This document shows positions 21,380 through 41,319 of a stretch of DNA of 64,000 nucleotides, piece by piece. This stretch comes from a virus. Its lineage: Duplodnaviria > Caudoviricetes. The translations under genes and the position numbers were made by a program. Under the pieces are notes generated by a model. It was not told where the DNA came from, searched no databases, and saw nothing but the letters and a program-made list of their open reading frames with translations. Every line of letters starts with the position of its first letter. Within the stretch, counting starts at the first letter, position 1. The DNA lies in the IMG/VR virus record IMGVR_UViG_3300005973_000002; one strand, written 5' to 3'.

Positions 21380-22044
21380 AACATTTAATCAAAATGATGG
21401 TAGAACAAGTTCTTGACGAACTTATCAGTTCAAAGGAGCCTACGGTTTACTTTGACATGGATGGTGTGCTGGCTGATTTCCAGGGTAAAGTTGAGCAAGA
21501 CATTGCCTATCAACGAGCCAAACAAGAATTTGAAAATTTAGCAGCCAAAGCTAAGCCGGAATTGCTTTCAGTACATACTGACGATTTAAAGGACATCTTC
21601 AAAGGCCGACAAGAAGATCCGGTGATGGCTAAATTAAAAAAGCTTTGGAATAAAAAACGCAATGCTTCATATGCCGTTGCTGGAAAACTTGGTCATTTTA
21701 AAAATCTTGATATTTTACCTGGCGCTAAAGAAATGATGATGGCAGCAGCTGATCTAACTAGAAAAAAGCCACACATCCTTACAGCTCCGATGGAAAGTCA
21801 TTCCAGATGCGAAGAAGAGAAAAGAGAGTGGGTTGACGAGCATTTAGCAGGTTTGTTTGATCAGTTTCATTGCACCCAGGACAAACATAATTTTGCCAAC
21901 AATGAGTGGGATATTCTTATTGATGACCGACCAAAATATGTAAATAAGTTCCGTGACGCCGGGGGTACTGCAATACTACATGTTGATCCAGGTGAAACTA
22001 TACAAAAGCTGCAAGAGTTGATTGCTAATTTGAAGGCGCAATAG
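21376..22044 (+). CDS. HAD 5'(3')-deoxyribonucleotidase (NT5C-like) with leader
   Basis: FDMDGVLADF, ILTAP, K..W, ILIDD motifs. Confidence 0.88.
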   Translation: MKHLIKMMVEQVLDELISSKEPTVYFDMDGVLADFQGKVEQDIAYQRAKQEFENLAAKAKPELLSVHTDDLKDIFKGRQEDPVMAKLKKLWNKKRNASYAVAGKLGHFKNLDILPGAKEMMMAAADLTRKKPHILTAPMESHSRCEEEKREWVDEHLAGLFDQFHCTQDKHNFANNEWDILIDDRPKYVNKFRDAGGTAILHVDPGETIQKLQELIANLKAQ

Positions 22045-29548: not shown

Positions 29549-29634
29549 ATGTACATTAATTTTCGACGTTGTATTCAAGAAGCAGGCGGACGCCTTTCAA
29601 AGGAGTAATTCATATTGGTGCTTTTGAGACCTGA
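29549..29634 (+). pseudogene. relic 5' end of FkbM methyltransferase
   Basis: MYINFRRCIQEAG(G)/PFKGVIHIGA across a frameshift matches MYISMKQCIESIGHPIRGIIHIGA at 30357. Confidence 0.8.
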
Positions 29635-29643
29635 TCATATTTA

Positions 29644-30357
29644 ATGGACATGAAATGTATATTTGAAGGAAATGCTAATAAGGGTGGTGTTTATCAAATC
29701 ACAAACAAGATTAATAAAAAGACCTACATTGGCAGTGCCAAATGCTTTAAGAAGAGAGCTTACCAACATCGTTCCGCATTGAGAAATGGGAAACATCACA
29801 ACAAACATTTACAACGTGCTTTTAACAAGTACGGCAAAGAAGCGTTTGAATTTAGAGTGTTACAAGTGACTGAAGGCAATAGAGACAGTAGACTAAAAGA
29901 AGAACAAAAATATCTTAATAATTTTCTTCTAGAAGATAGATGGAATTTGTGTTATAATTTATTAAAACAATCTAATTGTGGAAATGGTTTCATCGAAAAC
30001 ATTGGCAAAATACCTTGGAATAAGGGAAAAACAAATATCTATTCCGAAGAAACCCTACTAAAAATAAGCAATTCTGTAAAAACAAGTGGAAACCCAAATT
30101 GGGGAAAGGCTCGTTCACAAGAAACTAAAGAAAAAATTGCAAAAAAGAATAAAGGTGAGAAAAACGGAATGTATGGTAAAATAGGAAAAAAACATCCACG
30201 AGCGAAGTCATACAATCTTCTATCTCCCGAAGGAAAGAATTTTAAAGGAATTGGTCTTAGAAATTTTTGTAATGAACATGGATTGGACCAAAGATCAATG
30301 TGGAGAGTCATTTCAGGTCAAAGAAATCATTACAAGGGATGGAGAAAGTGTAATTAA
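29644..30357 (+). CDS. free-standing GIY-YIG homing endonuclease with NUMOD3-like repeats
   Basis: GVYQI...YIGSA, H...L, PWNKGK, SQETKEKI, C-terminal HTH. Confidence 0.92.
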   Translation: MDMKCIFEGNANKGGVYQITNKINKKTYIGSAKCFKKRAYQHRSALRNGKHHNKHLQRAFNKYGKEAFEFRVLQVTEGNRDSRLKEEQKYLNNFLLEDRWNLCYNLLKQSNCGNGFIENIGKIPWNKGKTNIYSEETLLKISNSVKTSGNPNWGKARSQETKEKIAKKNKGEKNGMYGKIGKKHPRAKSYNLLSPEGKNFKGIGLRNFCNEHGLDQRSMWRVISGQRNHYKGWRKCN

Positions 30358-31001
30358 TGTATATTTCAATGAAACAATGTATTGAATCAATTGGTCATCC
30401 AATACGTGGAATTATTCACATCGGTGCGCACCGAGGTCAAGAGGCCGAAGACTATGCTAACAATGGCGTGAAAGAAGTTCTTTGGGTCGAGGCCAACAAG
30501 AAAATGATGAAGCACCTTTATGACAAAACATGCAATGTGCCTACCAAGTCACACTACTTTTGCGCAACCCTCTCAGACAGGGATAATGAAACAGTAACTC
30601 TAAATGTTACCAATAACGAGCAATCGACATCCATCCTTGAACTTGGAACTCATGCAACTATGTATCCCCATATCACCATCTCGGAAAGGATACAGGTTCA
30701 AACCAAACGATTTGAAACTCTTTGGAGAGAGAATGTAAATGAAATCGATTTAGACTCTTATGATTTTGTAAATATTGATGTACAAGGTGCGGAATTAAAA
30801 GTTCTAAAAGGCTTTGGTGAAATCTGGAATAGAGTTCCTATTAGAGCAGTATATGCAGAAGTTAATTTTGAACATGTTTACAAAGGTTGTTGCTTGGTTG
30901 AAGACCTCGACGAGTACCTTGGCGAATTTGGATTCCAAAGAGTGCTTACAGCCGCCCCTGAAGGAACATGGGGTGACGCCTTATATTTGCGGAGAGTCTA
31001 A
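30357..31001 (+). CDS. FkbM-family methyltransferase
   Basis: IHIGAHRGQE, WVEAN, IDVQGAELKVLKG, EVN, WGDALY. Confidence 0.92.
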   Translation: MYISMKQCIESIGHPIRGIIHIGAHRGQEAEDYANNGVKEVLWVEANKKMMKHLYDKTCNVPTKSHYFCATLSDRDNETVTLNVTNNEQSTSILELGTHATMYPHITISERIQVQTKRFETLWRENVNEIDLDSYDFVNIDVQGAELKVLKGFGEIWNRVPIRAVYAEVNFEHVYKGCCLVEDLDEYLGEFGFQRVLTAAPEGTWGDALYLRRV

Positions 31002-34382: not shown

Positions 34383-36383
34383 ATGGCTAAGAAATGGAAT
34401 TTTGATCCTTTTAAAGGCTACAAAGGAAATCTTGATTGGTTGGAGAAGCGAACCATTTTCGTAACTGTGCATGGATCACAAGCTTATGGCACCTCCATGC
34501 CTGAATCTGACATTGATGTCAAAGGCTTGGCTATTCCCCCCAAGGAATATTTCCATGGTTTTGTAAAGAATTTTGAGCAAGCAGAAGGCAAGGAACCATA
34601 TGATATGGTTATTTATGGTCTTCGTAAGTTCATGAAGCTTGCTTCGAATTGCAACCCAAACATCATTGAAGTTTTATTTACCGACCCAGATGATTGGGTT
34701 GTTGACACCGTTATTTTTCGAAAACTTTGGGAGCATCGTGATCTTTTTTTAAGCAAAAAGGCTAGATTCACGTTTAGTGGATATGCAAATCAGCAGCTAA
34801 AACGAATCAAGGGTCACAAGCGTTGGCTTTTGGAGCCGCCTACACATAAGCCGACCCGAGAAGAATTTGGTCTTCCTGTTGAACGTAAGATGAGTCAGTC
34901 AGAAATCGGGGCTACGCAAAAATTGGTTGACGATGGTGCCCCATTGGCTGAAGACATTATGAGACTCTTTCACAAAGAACAGAAGTATTATAGTGCAAGG
35001 CGTGAATGGGAACAATACCAAAAGTGGAAGCGCACTCGTAACGAAAAGCGAGCAAAGCTTGAAGCTGATTTTGGTTATGATTGTTATTTGGATGACACAG
35101 AATTTTTGACGGAACGTGGTTGGCTGCCTTACGAGCAAATCACCAAAGCAGATAAGCTGGCAACGGTTCGTCAAAAAACAGGGGAACTGGAGTTCCAGAA
35201 GTTTAGCGAACGAGTCCGAAAGCCTTATAGTGGAGAAATTCTTCACTTCGAAACCCAAGATAGTCTGTGCTCTGTAACTCCCAATCACAGAATGCTGGTG
35301 TCTCCCATGTGCCGCAGCAGAAAAAACGGGTTTTCAACAAGGTATCGGCAGCAGACTGCCAAGTGGCAAATCAAAAGAGCAGATGAGCTTCTCAATGAGT
35401 ATAAAAGCCATTATCATATTCGGTTGACGGCACATCAAACCAAAGACAACACAGAAATTTCTGAAAACCTTCTTTGGATCGTGGGTACCTATGTTAGTGA
35501 AGGTTGTGTTGGGAAACGACTCAAGAACGGCGCACCATCTGTCTTGAGGTTCTCGCAAAAGGAATCCAATAGGCAGCAGGTGTTTTTGGACTCCTTGTGT
35601 GAGAGCACCGAAATGCGGAAAATCACCCATTTTCGTGAAGACAAGGGGTATAATGAACTGATTTATACCTTGGCTGACCGCAGTTTAGCCAAACAGGTTG
35701 TTGAATGGTGCGGCGAATATTCCAGGAACAAACGACTGCCACCGTGGATCACCACCCTGTCAAGTCAACAAGCAAATAGCTTGTTGAATGTCATGATTGC
35801 TGGGGACGGCACAGAGCGTAAATATAGCTCCATTTACTACACAATTTCGCAAGCTCTGGCTAATGATGTCCAGACACTTGGGGTCATTGCGGGAAGGCCC
35901 ACTAAAATTTGGGGGCCTTACGAGGACGGCATGTATCAGGTATATCTTGGCGATCCAGAGGCAACAGATTCTCTTGTGGCTACCAAATACGGTCATGTTA
36001 CTAGTGAAGAAGTTGTTGATCGCCACATTGTTTGCTTTACTGTACCTAATGAGATTTTGATCACACGTCGGAAGGGTAAGCTGGCAATTCAGGGCAACAC
36101 CAAACATGCTGGTCATCTAGTTCGTCTTATGCGAATGTGTCGAGAAATTCTTAGTGAAGGCAAGGTTTACGTTCGACGACCGGATGCTGATGAACTCATG
36201 GCTATTCGTAAGGGAGCATGGACTTATGATGAGCTAATTGAATGGGCCGACAAACAAGATAAAGAAATGCAAAAACTATACGAGACTTCTCCACTTCCTG
36301 AAAAGCCTCAAGTAGAAAAAATTGACAAGGTTTGCCAAATGCTTGTAGAAGAGGCTTTACGGCACGAGTCACTTCGGTTCTAA
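34383..36383 (+). CDS. Pol-beta-superfamily nucleotidyltransferase (RlaP/PF10127-like) with intein
   Basis: HGSQAYG...ESDIDVKG, NPNIIEVL, GYD|TKHA.HLVRL. Confidence 0.9.
   Translation: MAKKWNFDPFKGYKGNLDWLEKRTIFVTVHGSQAYGTSMPESDIDVKGLAIPPKEYFHGFVKNFEQAEGKEPYDMVIYGLRKFMKLASNCNPNIIEVLFTDPDDWVVDTVIFRKLWEHRDLFLSKKARFTFSGYANQQLKRIKGHKRWLLEPPTHKPTREEFGLPVERKMSQSEIGATQKLVDDGAPLAEDIMRLFHKEQKYYSARREWEQYQKWKRTRNEKRAKLEADFGYDCYLDDTEFLTERGWLPYEQITKADKLATVRQKTGELEFQKFSERVRKPYSGEILHFETQDSLCSVTPNHRMLVSPMCRSRKNGFSTRYRQQTAKWQIKRADELLNEYKSHYHIRLTAHQTKDNTEISENLLWIVGTYVSEGCVGKRLKNGAPSVLRFSQKESNRQQVFLDSLCESTEMRKITHFREDKGYNELIYTLADRSLAKQVVEWCGEYSRNKRLPPWITTLSSQQANSLLNVMIAGDGTERKYSSIYYTISQALANDVQTLGVIAGRPTKIWGPYEDGMYQVYLGDPEATDSLVATKYGHVTSEEVVDRHIVCFTVPNEILITRRKGKLAIQGNTKHAGHLVRLMRMCREILSEGKVYVRRPDADELMAIRKGAWTYDELIEWADKQDKEMQKLYETSPLPEKPQVEKIDKVCQMLVEEALRHESLRF
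35082..36098 (+). mobile_element. LAGLIDADG intein (339 aa) in nucleotidyltransferase
   Basis: GYD|CYLDDTEFLTERGW, VTPNHRM block B, VGTYVSEG and MIAGDG, CFTVPN...IQGN|T. Confidence 0.93.
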
Positions 36384-36449
36384 CGTCAATAAACATAGCA
36401 CACAGCCTTCCAGGTTTTGCTGTCTACTTATTGTGGAAAAGGAGAAAAC

Positions 36450-37118
36450 ATGGAAGGCTCAATCATATTAATTGCTACCATAGCAGCATTCGTAGCTATC
36501 GGTATTTACATGCTTGTGAGGATTTTGAAGGGACCAAAATTACCAGAAGGCCATCAATTTGTAGCAGAACACAAAGGTAATAAAGCAATTGTTATAATTG
36601 ATAAAAACCTTGAAGGTGCTATCAAAAACAAAGATGGTAGTGTTATTTCTTGGGTTTTAAATGGTAAGTTTTACTATGGCAATGATCTTGCAATAAAATG
36701 TGCTAAGGCAATCAAAGCAACAGAGCTAGCTTTTAAAGAAAAAGGAGTTGAAAAGGCTGATGTGAGTGAGGTAGTATTCTTATTCAGCACAGATGCTACC
36801 TTTGAAGCGGGATCAAAATGGTGGCAAGCCTGGGCAGCAGGAGCAGCAGCGTATTCTACAGAATTGGTGGGAGATTTTAGAATTAAAGTTCTACCAATGG
36901 CTGTGATACGTACAAAATATATTAAAACTGTATCTGAAAGAGGACAGCCGGCAATACATGAGCTTGTTCATTTGCTTAATAAACAAGCTAATGGAGATTA
37001 TAGTCACAGTCACACCGATCCCAAGTTATGGCTTGGACCTGGTGGAACAGGATCAGTCGAAGGAATTGGTGTACAAAAATGGAAAGAAATCGTAGGTACA
37101 CCTGATGACCAAAACTAA
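36450..37118 (+). CDS. membrane-anchored protein with HExxH motif (possible zinc peptidase)
   Basis: N-terminal TM IILIATIAAFVAIGIYML; IHELVH; AAGGAG SD. Confidence 0.7.
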   Translation: MEGSIILIATIAAFVAIGIYMLVRILKGPKLPEGHQFVAEHKGNKAIVIIDKNLEGAIKNKDGSVISWVLNGKFYYGNDLAIKCAKAIKATELAFKEKGVEKADVSEVVFLFSTDATFEAGSKWWQAWAAGAAAYSTELVGDFRIKVLPMAVIRTKYIKTVSERGQPAIHELVHLLNKQANGDYSHSHTDPKLWLGPGGTGSVEGIGVQKWKEIVGTPDDQN

Positions 37119-37126
37119 ATACCAGC
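37105..37126 (+). repeat. 22-bp direct repeat, copy 1 (duplicated start of nucleotidase gene)
   Basis: ATGACCAAAACTAAATACCAGC identical to 38134-38155. Confidence 0.97.
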
Positions 37127-37127
37127 A

Positions 37128-38012
37128 CTATTGAAGCTTCCAAACATAACCTTTGTATGATTTATTGTATTTTATTGCTAAACTAATTCCATTATATTGA
37201 CAATTGTTTTGTCGTGCGGCTTCGCTCATACTTGGCCAAACTTTGATCAGTTTGCCTGTTGGTTCAAACTGTTTAACAGGTTTAGCATTATTGTAACACA
37301 ATTTTCTATTTTCATTTAATTGTGCATGAGATGATAGCCTATCGTCGACAATATCTTTTGAATCAGGCCAGCGCCAATAAAATCCACCGACGGTTCGATG
37401 CGGATTTTGGTTGATGGAATAGGAAATATTGCGCCAACTTTTATATCCAATTCCAAGACCAGCTTGTCTGGTCGATGGCCAGTTTTTAATAACTTTACCT
37501 GTTTGAGGGCAAATTTGTAAAACTTCTTTCGAAGTTGCTTTTCCGCCTGGGTTGTACTTTCTAAGTTTTTCTTTATGTTCTTTTGTATGTTTGGTTGGAA
37601 TGATTTCCCCCGTTTCTAACTTTAGTTTACGAGTTTTTGATATTTTTTTCCTTGTTTCTTCGGGAGTTTGTGACCATGGACCTTCTTTTTGAATGACTTT
37701 TCTCTTGTGGTTCAAAAAATTTGAATCATCCCAAAATTTGTCAACATATTGTTGTTCGACAGTTCTTCTTTTCAGAGTTGTTCCTTCAATTGTTTCAATA
37801 ACTTCAAACAAAAATTCCTCTGGCTTATATTTGGACCATAAATGCAACAAATGCTTGTTATGATGTTTTCCTACATTTAATCTGCTTTGATGCTGTGAGG
37901 CTCTAACTTTGAAGCGCTTCGCACTTCCAATATAAAATTTGCTAGTTGTTAAATGTGTTATTTTATATATTCCACCTTTGTTAGCATCTCCTTTAAACTC
38001 TTTCTTCGTAAT
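37128..38012 (-). CDS. GIY-YIG homing endonuclease with NUMOD/HTH repeats; start codon out of frame
   Basis: frame open from ATT 38012: KGDANKGGIYKI..FYIGSA; nearest ATG (38016) is shifted by 1 nt. Confidence 0.85.
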   Translation of the reverse strand: MTKKEFKGDANKGGIYKITHLTTSKFYIGSAKRFKVRASQHQSRLNVGKHHNKHLLHLWSKYKPEEFLFEVIETIEGTTLKRRTVEQQYVDKFWDDSNFLNHKRKVIQKEGPWSQTPEETRKKISKTRKLKLETGEIIPTKHTKEHKEKLRKYNPGGKATSKEVLQICPQTGKVIKNWPSTRQAGLGIGYKSWRNISYSINQNPHRTVGGFYWRWPDSKDIVDDRLSSHAQLNENRKLCYNNAKPVKQFEPTGKLIKVWPSMSEAARQNNCQYNGISLAIKYNKSYKGYVWKLQ

Positions 38013-38133
38013 TCATCCTTGTTTTAGAGAAAATATTTTTATCTTCTCGATTGCAAGAATAATATTGTAAAGGTTACCAGTTTTCTCTTCAAACATCGAT
38101 AACTATGTGATAACGTTAGAAACATAGGTAAAA

Positions 38134-38766
38134 ATGACCAAAACTAAATACCAGCTCTTTGTGGACATGGATGGAGTCCTTGTAGATTACATGGGTGGCG
38201 TTTTGCCGACCATGAATGAATTTGTTGCAGAGGTCGCAGCAGCTCCGAATCGCTTTAAGACAGAAAAACCAGACCTTTATAAGGCTGCAAAGAAAGCAAT
38301 TGCCGAAATGGGTGGTAATGTTGATGAAGGCTACGTTGGTACTGAAATAAAATACCACGATGTCGGCAAGGGAACGGAAAAGAAAAAGGTTCGTTCTTTG
38401 ATGTACACCCTTGTTTCTAACAACTACCAGTGGTGGGTTAATCTTGATTGGATGCCAGATGGCCGTGAACTATGGAATCACATCAAAAGACATAATCCAA
38501 TTATTCTTACAGGACCCCAAGGTCCCAATTCCAAAAAGGGTAAGAAAGATTGGGTAAATCGTGAGCTTGGTCTGGGGAAAGATCGAATTATTATCACGCA
38601 TACAAAGCATGAAGAAGTTCGCCCAATGCTTAAAAAAGGAATTATGCCAGTTTTGATCGACGATCTACCCAAATACGTCGTTCCCTTTAGAAATGCGGGT
38701 GGTATTTGCATTCATCACATCAACACCGAGCAAACAATTCGAGAACTGGAAGCGTTTGGATTTTAG
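38134..38766 (+). CDS. second HAD 5'(3')-deoxyribonucleotidase (no leader)
   Basis: FVDMDGVLVD, ILTG, KKDW, LIDD...F..AGG motifs. Confidence 0.9.
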   Translation: MTKTKYQLFVDMDGVLVDYMGGVLPTMNEFVAEVAAAPNRFKTEKPDLYKAAKKAIAEMGGNVDEGYVGTEIKYHDVGKGTEKKKVRSLMYTLVSNNYQWWVNLDWMPDGRELWNHIKRHNPIILTGPQGPNSKKGKKDWVNRELGLGKDRIIITHTKHEEVRPMLKKGIMPVLIDDLPKYVVPFRNAGGICIHHINTEQTIRELEAFGF

Positions 38767-39507
38767 TTACTTCTTTTTCTTTCCGGTAAAGAGGTTACTA
38801 ACCCACTTATCGAGCCAGCCTTTCTTTTGAGGGGCTGGTTTTTTCTTATTAACCTTAGGCTTGTTAAGTTTTGGTTTCGGTTCCGGCTCCTGTTGTACTT
38901 CAGGAGTGGTAACTTTGAGCCTGTTTCTGCGTTCTTCGACCCATTCTTCAACATATGGCCCAGGACATGTAGCCTTGTTTTTTCTTGCACCCCATTGCTT
39001 AGCTTCGGCATGAAAACTTAGACCATCAGGCAAATTAAGTTCGTGACGATCAACAAGCCAGTCAGTCAAGGCTTCCGCCATCTTAAACTGTTCATCAGAT
39101 GGCTGCCCAGTTTTTCCAGGGTGTAAATTTCCCTGCCACACAACGCCGACACCTTCATCATTGCAACGCTGACCGGTGTGCCACGCTCTTTCATCATCCT
39201 GAGCTAGTCTGTAGATAATCATGTTGCCATCATCATCATACTCGGGCTTATAGGACAACCAATAATGATATGGTCTGGCACCAAAGTTTCTTTTTTGAAT
39301 AACGTAACGTATTGAATTTCTAGCTCCCTCGAAGCCATCAGCACCATAAGCTCCAGAGTTGTGAAAGAAAACTCTTACGATTTTAATTCCAATTGGTCTG
39401 CGGTTTGAACGTGGGTTTGTTGGCTTTGGTAAGATGTCACTGACATCATAAATTGCAATTTTTCCTGGCAAAACAACTTCAAGTCTTGCTTCTTTTGGTA
39501 AAGTCAT
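38767..39507 (-). CDS. N-acetylmuramoyl-L-alanine amidase (Amidase_2-type endolysin)
   Basis: FFHNSG, YHY, AWHTG..N..G.G, H.E, TCPG zinc ligands; AGGAGG SD. Confidence 0.88.
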   Translation of the reverse strand: MTLPKEARLEVVLPGKIAIYDVSDILPKPTNPRSNRRPIGIKIVRVFFHNSGAYGADGFEGARNSIRYVIQKRNFGARPYHYWLSYKPEYDDDGNMIIYRLAQDDERAWHTGQRCNDEGVGVVWQGNLHPGKTGQPSDEQFKMAEALTDWLVDRHELNLPDGLSFHAEAKQWGARKNKATCPGPYVEEWVEERRNRLKVTTPEVQQEPEPKPKLNKPKVNKKKPAPQKKGWLDKWVSNLFTGKKKK

Positions 39508-39530: not shown

Positions 39531-40409
39531 CTATATACCAAGCTGCTTCTTTATGTCCGCTTCAATGGCTTGAGCCGTCTTCCGACAAAGAACTTCATTC
39601 TCGCCATTCACTATTGCAATCCTATAAGTGTTCAAGTCATTATCTGCAAATGAAGAAAGTGGTTTGTTTTCTGCAATTGTATAGTGAACCTTGACTTCAT
39701 CAGTTGAATCAAAATTCAAATGCAAAGTTTTATCAGGCGAACATTGATCTTTGGCAACCCGTACTACAAAACTATATCCGGGGATGTTTTCGCTGGATTT
39801 ATTCCATGCCTTTTCGTCATACAATTTAATCATTGATGGTATGAAGTCATCACCATAAAAATCAACAAACTGTGTGGAGCATCTTAGATGAACTTCAATG
39901 ATTTTTGCTCCTATCGATTCTACATTGACAATACCGGTAAAATCATTCAAATGCTCTTGAATCCATTTGATTTCATTCTGGTGCAACCCTTTAGAAAAAT
40001 ACCAATGAGTAAAGCTACCATTTTTGTCTTTTTGGCCTGACATGGAATACGACCAAACCACCTCACCATCCAGTAACGCATAGTCAGTAGACGTGTGTCG
40101 CCCGTAAAATACTGGCATCCATAGATGCCCTGCTGTATATTCCCACTCATGACTAAACCAAACAACTTTCGCTCCAATGCTCATACCAAAGAGATTATAG
40201 ATCGGCTTGCTAAAAATAGGAAAATTGTTTGGCGTTATTCCATGAGGAAACGCTTCGTACCCCAGTTTTTGGTAAAGTTCAAGTTTATTGTATACCCAGC
40301 GATATTTTAAAAAAGTTTGATAAGCAGCAACATCGCCAGTTGGTATCAACGACTTAGGCGAATAATTTTCAAAAGATTTAGTAAAGTAGATGTCATCGTG
40401 AAGAAACAT
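39531..40409 (-). CDS. ATP-grasp-like hypothetical protein
   Basis: YNKL, PIFSKP..NL.GMS.GA, G.H.S.D, N.E......IEVHLR. Confidence 0.55.
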   Translation of the reverse strand: MFLHDDIYFTKSFENYSPKSLIPTGDVAAYQTFLKYRWVYNKLELYQKLGYEAFPHGITPNNFPIFSKPIYNLFGMSIGAKVVWFSHEWEYTAGHLWMPVFYGRHTSTDYALLDGEVVWSYSMSGQKDKNGSFTHWYFSKGLHQNEIKWIQEHLNDFTGIVNVESIGAKIIEVHLRCSTQFVDFYGDDFIPSMIKLYDEKAWNKSSENIPGYSFVVRVAKDQCSPDKTLHLNFDSTDEVKVHYTIAENKPLSSFADNDLNTYRIAIVNGENEVLCRKTAQAIEADIKKQLGI

Positions 40410-40428
40410 AATGTGGCAGCATTAAGTA

Positions 40429-41319
40429 TCAAATACTTGTCCAACCCTTATATTCTTCTTGCTTTCCTCTGGCTACTCTGCTCATTACTTGAGGAATAAG
40501 TTTAATTGAAGACTTCGCACAAAACTCTTGCATATTTGTGATAATAACTACTTCACCCTCTGGATTGCGAAGCTTATATGTCTTCTGTTTTAATTTTCGT
40601 AATCTATCTGAAGCTCGTTTTTTTCGTGCTTCATCTTTTGCCCAAGAACGCTTTCGACCTTCAATTACCTTTTCTCGGTACTCAGGATCTTGCCAAAGCT
40701 TCTTATTGAGCTTAGATACAGATTTAGAAATCTTCTTACGTGTTTCCTTTGAAACCTCTTTGCCTTGAGCAGCTTTAGACAGCTTTTTACGGTACTCAGG
40801 CTTCTGTGTAAAATTTCGGATGGCCTCAACATGTTTCTCTCGGTACTCAGCGTCTTGCCAAAGCTCTTTCGTCTTCTTCGATTGAAACTCACTTTGAAAC
40901 TTACGATATTCGGGGTCTTTCCACCTTTTTTTCATTGAAATTGACATCTTCTTTCGAGTTTCTTTTGGAGTTTTTGAACGACACGAACGTCCGTTTCGGT
41001 TTGTTTTTTTGTCTATGTTATAGCACTTTTGCTGACTGTCATAGTGTTTATTGATTAGTTGTTGTTCAACTAGAAGTCTTGCTTTTTGTTCGCCCAATAC
41101 AACTTTAACAACATGAAATTCAAATGAAGACTCACCACATTTATTAAAATCATGTTGTAGAAACCGATTGGAATGTCGATTTTCCTGCAAAGCTTTTAGA
41201 TGTTCGGTAGAACGTTGCTTGAATACTTTACAGGAACCAATGTAAATGCGACCATTGGATATGTTGATTATTTTGTAGACGCCTGATTTGTTTGAATGTC
41301 CGTTGTATACTCTTTTCAT
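40429..41319 (-). CDS. third GIY-YIG homing endonuclease with WxDPEYR repeats
   Basis: SGVYKI..IYIGS, repeated W.D.EYR.K and SKETRKKIS, C-terminal HTH. Confidence 0.92.
   Translation of the reverse strand: MKRVYNGHSNKSGVYKIINISNGRIYIGSCKVFKQRSTEHLKALQENRHSNRFLQHDFNKCGESSFEFHVVKVVLGEQKARLLVEQQLINKHYDSQQKCYNIDKKTNRNGRSCRSKTPKETRKKMSISMKKRWKDPEYRKFQSEFQSKKTKELWQDAEYREKHVEAIRNFTQKPEYRKKLSKAAQGKEVSKETRKKISKSVSKLNKKLWQDPEYREKVIEGRKRSWAKDEARKKRASDRLRKLKQKTYKLRNPEGEVVIITNMQEFCAKSSIKLIPQVMSRVARGKQEEYKGWTSI

Follow-up and report, generated by a model that had tools for sequence, protein, structure and literature searches.

The window analysed here is a 64,000-nucleotide (nt) stretch of the viral record IMGVR_UViG_3300005973_000002, which derives from a very large, uncultured T4-related phage of approximately 460 kb. 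Contigs carrying genes of this phage reach 438-461 kb, the sequencing runs that contain it are hypersaline-lake metagenomes, and the window also encodes RecA, a DnaB-type helicase, an intein-bearing ribonucleotide reductase, and a T4-type baseplate protein. Between two plus-strand genes of the window, termed here gene A and the nucleotidase gene, lies a cassette of about 1 kb that holds an antisense gene for a GIY-YIG endonuclease and is bracketed by two copies of the nucleotidase gene start.

The repeated sequence, ATGACCAAAACTAAATACCAGC, is exact over 22 nt at positions 37105-37126 and 38134-38155, its only two occurrences in the window, and the match lengthens to 24 of 25 positions when followed through 37129 and 38158. 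A first-pass annotation had described this duplication as rebuilding the start of the target gene, and the sequence bears that description out: when the window was shuffled 100 times with dinucleotide composition preserved, the 22-mer had no match, even at a tolerance of three mismatches. The left copy (37105-37129, plus strand) overlaps the upstream stop codon as had been claimed, with the last four codons and stop of gene A (GAT GAC CAA AAC TAA, the TAA at 37116-37118) falling within it, while the right copy (38134-38158, plus strand) opens the nucleotidase open reading frame (ORF). The 1007 nt between the exact repeats (37127-38133) contain the antisense endonuclease gene, whose TAG stop codon (37128-37130) is 1 nt from the end of the exact left repeat at 37126, again as annotated. 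The left copy thus now serves as the last codons and stop of gene A, and the right copy as the live start of the nucleotidase gene. Read from its own ATG, the left copy is a relic of that start, a nine-codon stub (MTKTKYQHY) that runs to a stop at 37132-37134.

Both flanking genes are whole. Gene A (36450-37118, plus strand, from the ORF list) encodes 222 amino acids and has no Pfam or PHROG family match; orthologs of the same length adjoin the nucleotidase gene in relatives. Its product has a hydrophobic helix at the N terminus and an HExxH motif (IHELVHLL), which suggest a membrane-anchored, metallopeptidase-like protein. The nucleotidase gene (38134-38766, plus strand) is intact and encodes a 210-amino-acid NT5C-like (HAD-type) protein resembling 5′(3′)-deoxyribonucleotidases. 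It matches PHROG 2643, scores 23.1 bits against Pfam NT5C, slightly below the 24.8 cut-off, and retains every invariant column in an alignment of 22 sequences. Its HAD motif I codons (DMDG) start 6-9 nt past the repeat. The live start is preceded by a ribosome-binding site and spacer, AGGTAAAA (38126-38133, plus strand), in which AGGT occupies 38126-38129; this 8-nt stretch followed by ATG has one exact occurrence in the window. The annotation had credited the nucleotidase gene with both a new promoter and a new ribosome-binding site. The latter stands; the former is unsupported, in that a sigma-70-type scan of the plus strand over 38020-38133 found no promoter-like site. A second, distant nucleotidase-like gene at 21445-22014 is 29% identical to the one at 38134.

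The endonuclease gene (37128-38009, minus strand) comprises 293 sense codons. Its product scores 29.6 bits against Pfam GIY-YIG (PF01541; cut-off 22.6), matches PHROG homing endonuclease families, and aligns with the I-TevI catalytic domain (PDB 1mk0) at an E value of 0.0016. Five residues invariant across 12 homologs, Tyr15, Tyr26, Gly28, Glu85, and Asn100, are all kept. The C-terminal end consists of two tandem NUMOD1-like modules that are 35% identical to one another (internal repeat E value 2e-5), with a NUMOD1 score of 17 bits, below the 22.8 cut-off; the homologs carry NUMOD3. A frame of this length would be open by chance with a probability of about 6e-11 at this composition, and none of 20,000 shuffles left it open. 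The nucleotidase gene is uninterrupted and reads in the opposite direction, and an Rfam scan of this cassette, together with a second one described below, returned no match at E values up to 1 and hence no intron RNA. Transposase domains are likewise absent from the cassette, as are terminal inverted repeats (1617 of 2000 shuffles score as well). The composition of the cassette is foreign, with a G+C content of 31-37% compared to 39-46% in the flanks.

The start of the endonuclease gene is unusual. Homologs begin with MKKEF(K/G)G...KGG(V/I)Y, and the corresponding stretch of the window, TGA ATT ACG AAG AAA GAG, reads as a stop, Ile, and then T-K-K-E-F-K-G, which places an ACG codon (38009-38007) exactly at the position of the homologs' ATG. 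The frame ahead of the GIY-YIG motif contains no ATG, GTG, or TTG, the ACG is present in all sampled copies of the gene, and gene callers place the start of the ORF past the catalytic motif, at an internal TTG (37850). The 5′ leader (38013-38062, minus strand) carries a ribosome-binding site, AAGGA (38020-38016), 6 nt before the ACG. In a predicted hairpin, 38062-38054 pairs with 38021-38013 and covers this site; the fold has a computed energy of -15.9 kcal/mol (z-score -3.26), and none of 200 shuffles was equally stable. Further upstream, a promoter-like site facing the endonuclease gene (38064-38092, minus strand; TTGAAG, 17 nt, TACAAT) agrees with the consensus at 9 of 12 positions in a scan that measures consensus match only, and RNA initiated from it would begin within the left arm of the hairpin. 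Because of the ACG start and the hairpin over the ribosome-binding site, the endonuclease is probably now made at a very low level, if at all. The gene may thus either be held at very low expression or have just lost its start, and whether it is decaying rather than deliberately damped is about evenly balanced. The leader hairpin is reminiscent of the hairpin control in T4 I-TevI. An out-of-frame ATG (38016-38014) opens a seven-codon mini-ORF across the start region; entry from this ATG by a +1 frameshift was considered and ruled out, as it is the endonuclease frame, beginning at the ACG, that aligns with the homologs' MKKEF.

A DNA search with positions 36400-38800 against 50,697 phage records gave no match, nor did single-protein scans of IMG/VR with the nucleotidase or gene A; an alignment query did return loci. 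Loci of relatives (designated L or G with a number) were taken from assemblies, IMG/VR, and JGI metagenomes, and gene A and the nucleotidase gene were positioned in each. The phage itself was recovered from SRA/Logan and from four JGI metagenome assemblies with 100% identity over the covered parts, and four of the matching sequences cover all of 36450-38766. A 2022 microbial-mat run contains a contig of 284 nt with 98% identity to window positions 38154-38437, and therefore a close relative occurs outside salt-lake samples; the contig is too short to interpret further. It starts 2 nt inside the end of the right repeat.

The annotation had called for empty-site alleles, and these exist. Nucleotidase relatives range from 55 to 83% identity, and the endonuclease gene is missing from the gene A/nucleotidase junction in all relatives examined. 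Gene A runs 14 nt into the nucleotidase gene in the closest lineage, L002-L011, whose nucleotidase is 83% identical, and likewise in L012-L015 and L018 (approximately 70%); each has a single copy of the start and no endonuclease gene. Relatives devoid of the cassette therefore carry one copy of the repeat; retention of both, which the annotation had named as the result that would refute it, is not what they show. In L021, L022, and L024, the overlap is about 20 nt. The sequence of overlap-type relatives such as L002 is identical to the left flank of the window up to the ATG, and deleting one repeat and the cassette in silico restores both the L002-type junction and the frame of gene A. A tree of the nucleotidases pairs the window with the overlap-type L002 as its sister (support 81/88), and overlapping genes also occur in three other lineages; on these grounds, we take the 14-nt overlap to be ancestral.

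The same junction is an insertion hot spot. Other relatives have a spacer of 39 nt (L019 and L020) or 75 nt (L017) between the two genes, and L017 has the identical 8 nt (AGGTAAAA) ahead of its nucleotidase start. An adenylate kinase gene (L016, 3356-3952) and a 111-amino-acid ORF (L023, 487-822) are also found at this position. Identity to L002 reaches 93% over the final 45 nt of gene A and 87% over nucleotides 31-75 of the nucleotidase gene, against approximately 75% elsewhere, which makes the site of the cassette the best-conserved part of the two genes. Homing endonucleases typically find their targets in highly conserved stretches. Sliding identity to L002, L012, L018, and L017 disclosed no co-conversion tract around the cassette, these relatives being too distant (approximately 75% nucleotide identity) to reveal one.

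A second cassette in the window has a comparable design. Directly after the stop of an upstream gene lies a decayed, frameshifted relic of the first 28 or so codons of an FkbM-type methyltransferase gene (29549-29640, plus strand), delimited by alignment to the live gene start. It is followed by a second endonuclease gene, encoding GIY-YIG and NUMOD3 domains (29644-30357, plus strand), whose stop overlaps the start of the live FkbM gene (TAATG; 30357-31001, plus strand; Pfam Methyltransf_21). In G002/L044, the upstream gene abuts FkbM with neither endonuclease gene nor relic, which constitutes an empty site, while G001/L047 has the same filled arrangement, the relic included in G001. Nucleotide identity between the window and G001 is approximately 72% in the flanking genes, rises to 82-95% over the endonuclease gene and the first 100 or so nucleotides of live FkbM, and then drops back. 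This profile indicates that the endonuclease gene and the rebuilt gene start probably spread laterally together, and recently. The relic and the live copy are about 60% alike; since the relic is the more decayed of the two, this figure does not show the live copy to be foreign.

FkbM had been put forward in the annotation as a second instance of a recurring strategy, and the relic and live copy, the empty and filled sites, and the raised identity sustain that view. Recurrence does not extend to the third GIY-YIG gene of the window (40429-41319), which has no flanking duplication in the window, L012, L016, or L018. Its insertion site is a 9-nt spacer in L002 (5434-5444), and because it occupies a spacer without duplication, we take duplication to occur only where a coding sequence is hit. 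The third gene encodes 296 amino acids and is present in the window, L012 (5486-6376), L016, and L018, and absent in L002. Beside it, in the region 39531-41319, is an extra gene of 292 amino acids (PHROG 3577, function unknown) that is missing from all four of these relatives.

We consider it probable that a free-standing GIY-YIG cassette of about 1 kb lodged in the former 14-nt overlap of gene A and the nucleotidase gene, and that duplication of the overlap keeps both genes whole. In the cassette, the antisense endonuclease gene is equipped with a ribosome-binding site and a promoter-like site, and a further ribosome-binding site serves the downstream gene. Because gene A ends and the nucleotidase gene begins within the same 14 bases, an insertion that failed to duplicate them would truncate one gene or the other, and the duplication serves the stop of the upstream gene as much as the start of the downstream one. 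It extends 8-11 nt past the overlap, up to the endonuclease stop codon. A plausible sequence of events would begin with a double-strand break in the first 25 or so nucleotides of the nucleotidase gene, with the cassette entering through repair of the break. In one route, the homing payload would comprise a replacement gene start in addition to the endonuclease gene, mirroring the fungal mitochondrial mORFs discussed below; in another, one-sided repair would rely on homologous sequence in the gene body at the right end and form an illegitimate junction at the left end. Selection would then have retained the duplicated product. Because the duplications at the two cassettes differ in length (22-25 nt compared to approximately 85-90 nt), recombination rather than a fixed staggered cut would account for them.

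The duplicate itself may have been either a gene start borne by the cassette or local sequence. An imported start is favored by the similarity to L017, which agrees with the window at 23 of 25 positions over the ribosome-binding site and the first 17 nt of the live copy, and by the uniqueness of this ribosome-binding site in the window. Against it, the relic equals the live copy at 22 of 22 positions, whereas L002 differs at 8 of 22; since relic and live copy are identical, the event was presumably recent and local, or the copies have been homogenized. Several further observations weigh against the cassette-insertion account. Every contig with gene A of this phage has the cassette, and all are 100% identical. 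Contigs of four runs over 36400-38800 contain no cassette-skipping joint and no variant, although contigs lose rare variants and are silent on excision. The endonuclease gene has no canonical start codon. No second occurrence of the endonuclease or the cassette was found, the nearest homolog being 41% identical, and the empty alleles recovered are at most 83% identical; for these reasons, the mobility of this particular cassette is not established. The nearest homologs, P0091 and P0094, lie near topoisomerase and ribonucleotide reductase genes rather than a nucleotidase gene, and their contexts identify no donor. Finally, the cleavage site and the argument for immunity given below are matters that we infer rather than observe.

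Some of these points suit a different account, in which the endonuclease gene is a fixed and dying relic that lost its start through an ATG-to-ACG change and no longer homes, so that the repeat is only a scar and the cassette is destined for deletion between the repeats. We regard this as a real possibility, if somewhat short of likely. The ACG falls exactly at the homologs' ATG with a well-spaced ribosome-binding site ahead of it, the cassette is in all sampled genomes with no empty allele in the same population, and the pattern agrees with the fixation-then-decay phase of the homing cycle, reportedly an established model due to Goddard and Burt. On the other hand, the frame is otherwise intact over 293 codons and retains the five invariant residues. 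T4 endonuclease genes are, moreover, usually expressed at low levels, and a hairpin that covers the ribosome-binding site resembles regulation rather than decay (PMC2988022). It is also conceivable that the duplication came first, a short tandem duplication or other rearrangement having separated the overlapping genes, with the endonuclease gene landing later in the spacer in the manner of T4 seg and mob genes, in which case the repeat would not be a product of insertion. The variability of the junction, with its 39- and 75-nt spacers, adenylate kinase gene, and 111-amino-acid ORF, lends this order of events some appeal, as does the 23-of-25 match of L017 to the ribosome-binding site and start of the window. 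We nevertheless think it unlikely, as no spacer-type relative has a duplicated nucleotidase start, the L017 spacer is not significantly similar to that of the window (542 of 2000 shuffles score as well), the endonuclease stop is flush with the repeat, and the FkbM cassette is arranged alike and travels as one piece. Positions 38024-38036 match the end of L017 gene A exactly over 13 nt (p approximately 0.005, one of several comparisons); this match lies in the hairpin stem and was taken as chance.

The presence of direct repeats around an inserted gene would also fit a transposon-type target-site duplication generated by a staggered cut and fill-in. This origin is very improbable: neither a transposase nor terminal inverted repeats accompany the gene, the FkbM duplication is of another length, and GIY-YIG enzymes leave 2-nt overhangs (PMC2988022). 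A chance repeat or a misassembly can be dismissed with near certainty, given that shuffles yield no match and that the repeat is shorter than the assembly word length; the complete identity of independent assemblies excludes an assembly artefact.

Returning to the insertion of a GIY-YIG cassette into the overlap, the length of the duplication invites a more specific and doubtful reading, in which the repeat would correspond to the interval between the cut site of the enzyme and its insertion site, and the unrecoded duplication would confer immunity by splitting a two-part target. The interval measures 22-25 nt, beginning at the nucleotidase ATG and ending shortly ahead of the HAD motif I codons; in I-TevI, the distance from cut site to insertion site is 23-25 nt. 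Since the live copy is not recoded, self-immunity would need a long two-part target spanning both repeat boundaries, which would be in keeping with the extended, two-part sites of GIY-YIG enzymes, and neither copy of the repeat now has both of its original flanks. If this reading were true, both overlapping genes would be intact while recombination between the repeats could still excise the cassette scarlessly.

By domain content and pattern of presence and absence, the window element is probably a free-standing, Seg-type GIY-YIG endonuclease gene. Like T4 SegA, SegF, and SegG, its product joins an I-TevI-like GIY-YIG catalytic domain to C-terminal putative DNA-binding modules. The gene likewise lies between conserved genes of a T4-related phage, comes and goes among relatives, shows signs of tight translational control, and is inserted beside conserved codons. 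Two features set it apart: Seg genes are intergenic and have no target duplication (PMC2988022), whereas a 14-nt overlap and a 22-25-nt duplication are involved here, and the window gene is antisense to both neighbors with an ACG start. According to the account of Parker et al. (1999) given in PMC2988022, one-sided illegitimate repair of double-strand breaks at microhomologies can move T4 introns to new sites. Such repair, beginning with a cut close to a gene start and using homology on a single side with a microhomology junction opposite, would offer a possible route for an endonuclease gene to reach a new site and leave a duplicated target; it is, however, a laboratory observation with the td intron.

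The closest parallel in layout is fungal. In mitochondrial mORFs, an endonuclease gene carries a duplicated end of its host gene, as in atp6 of Allomyces macrogynus and atp6, atp9, cox2, and nad3 of Glomus (PMC3630166). There, as here, the endonuclease gene is bracketed by two copies of a host-gene terminus, one live and one relic, and the FkbM cassette adds the likeness that endonuclease gene and live terminus appear to transfer together. In contrast, mORFs duplicate the C-terminal end, with a clearly diverged inserted copy, and the phage cassettes duplicate the N-terminal end; the two nucleotidase copies do not differ over 22 nt, and the relic is still in use, supplying the stop of gene A. 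The cassette design is thus already partly known, its layout being that of an mORF turned to the 5′ end. A literature search found no description of a phage endonuclease gene placed in a gene overlap and resolved by duplication. In Aeromonas phage Aeh1, nrdA is split by the free-standing endonuclease gene mobE into two polypeptides with function preserved. That case shares with the present one a free-standing endonuclease gene inside coding sequence with the function of the host gene kept, and differs in that nrdA is split; here no gene is split, and an overlap is duplicated instead.

Together, the two cassettes bear on how selfish endonuclease genes can enter the tightly packed, overlapping genes of phages harmlessly: the shared bases are duplicated, and each gene keeps a copy of its own. 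The FkbM cassette adds that an endonuclease gene can take a rebuilt gene start along when it moves, and the design of fungal mORFs is extended to the 5′ ends of phage genes. Both cassettes are also defined substrates for mapping a new GIY-YIG target. For annotation, they carry a warning that a short "orphan" gene start beside an endonuclease gene is a relic and that the true ends of such genes escape gene callers; some records call the nucleotidase gene from an internal ATG.

Upstream of gene A, an RlaP-type nucleotidyltransferase gene (34383-36383) encodes 666 amino acids in the window, compared to 327 in all relatives seen (L002, 2290-3273), and its insert is for that reason taken to be specific to the window lineage. 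The L003 counterpart is annotated as two ORFs of 112 and 222 amino acids.

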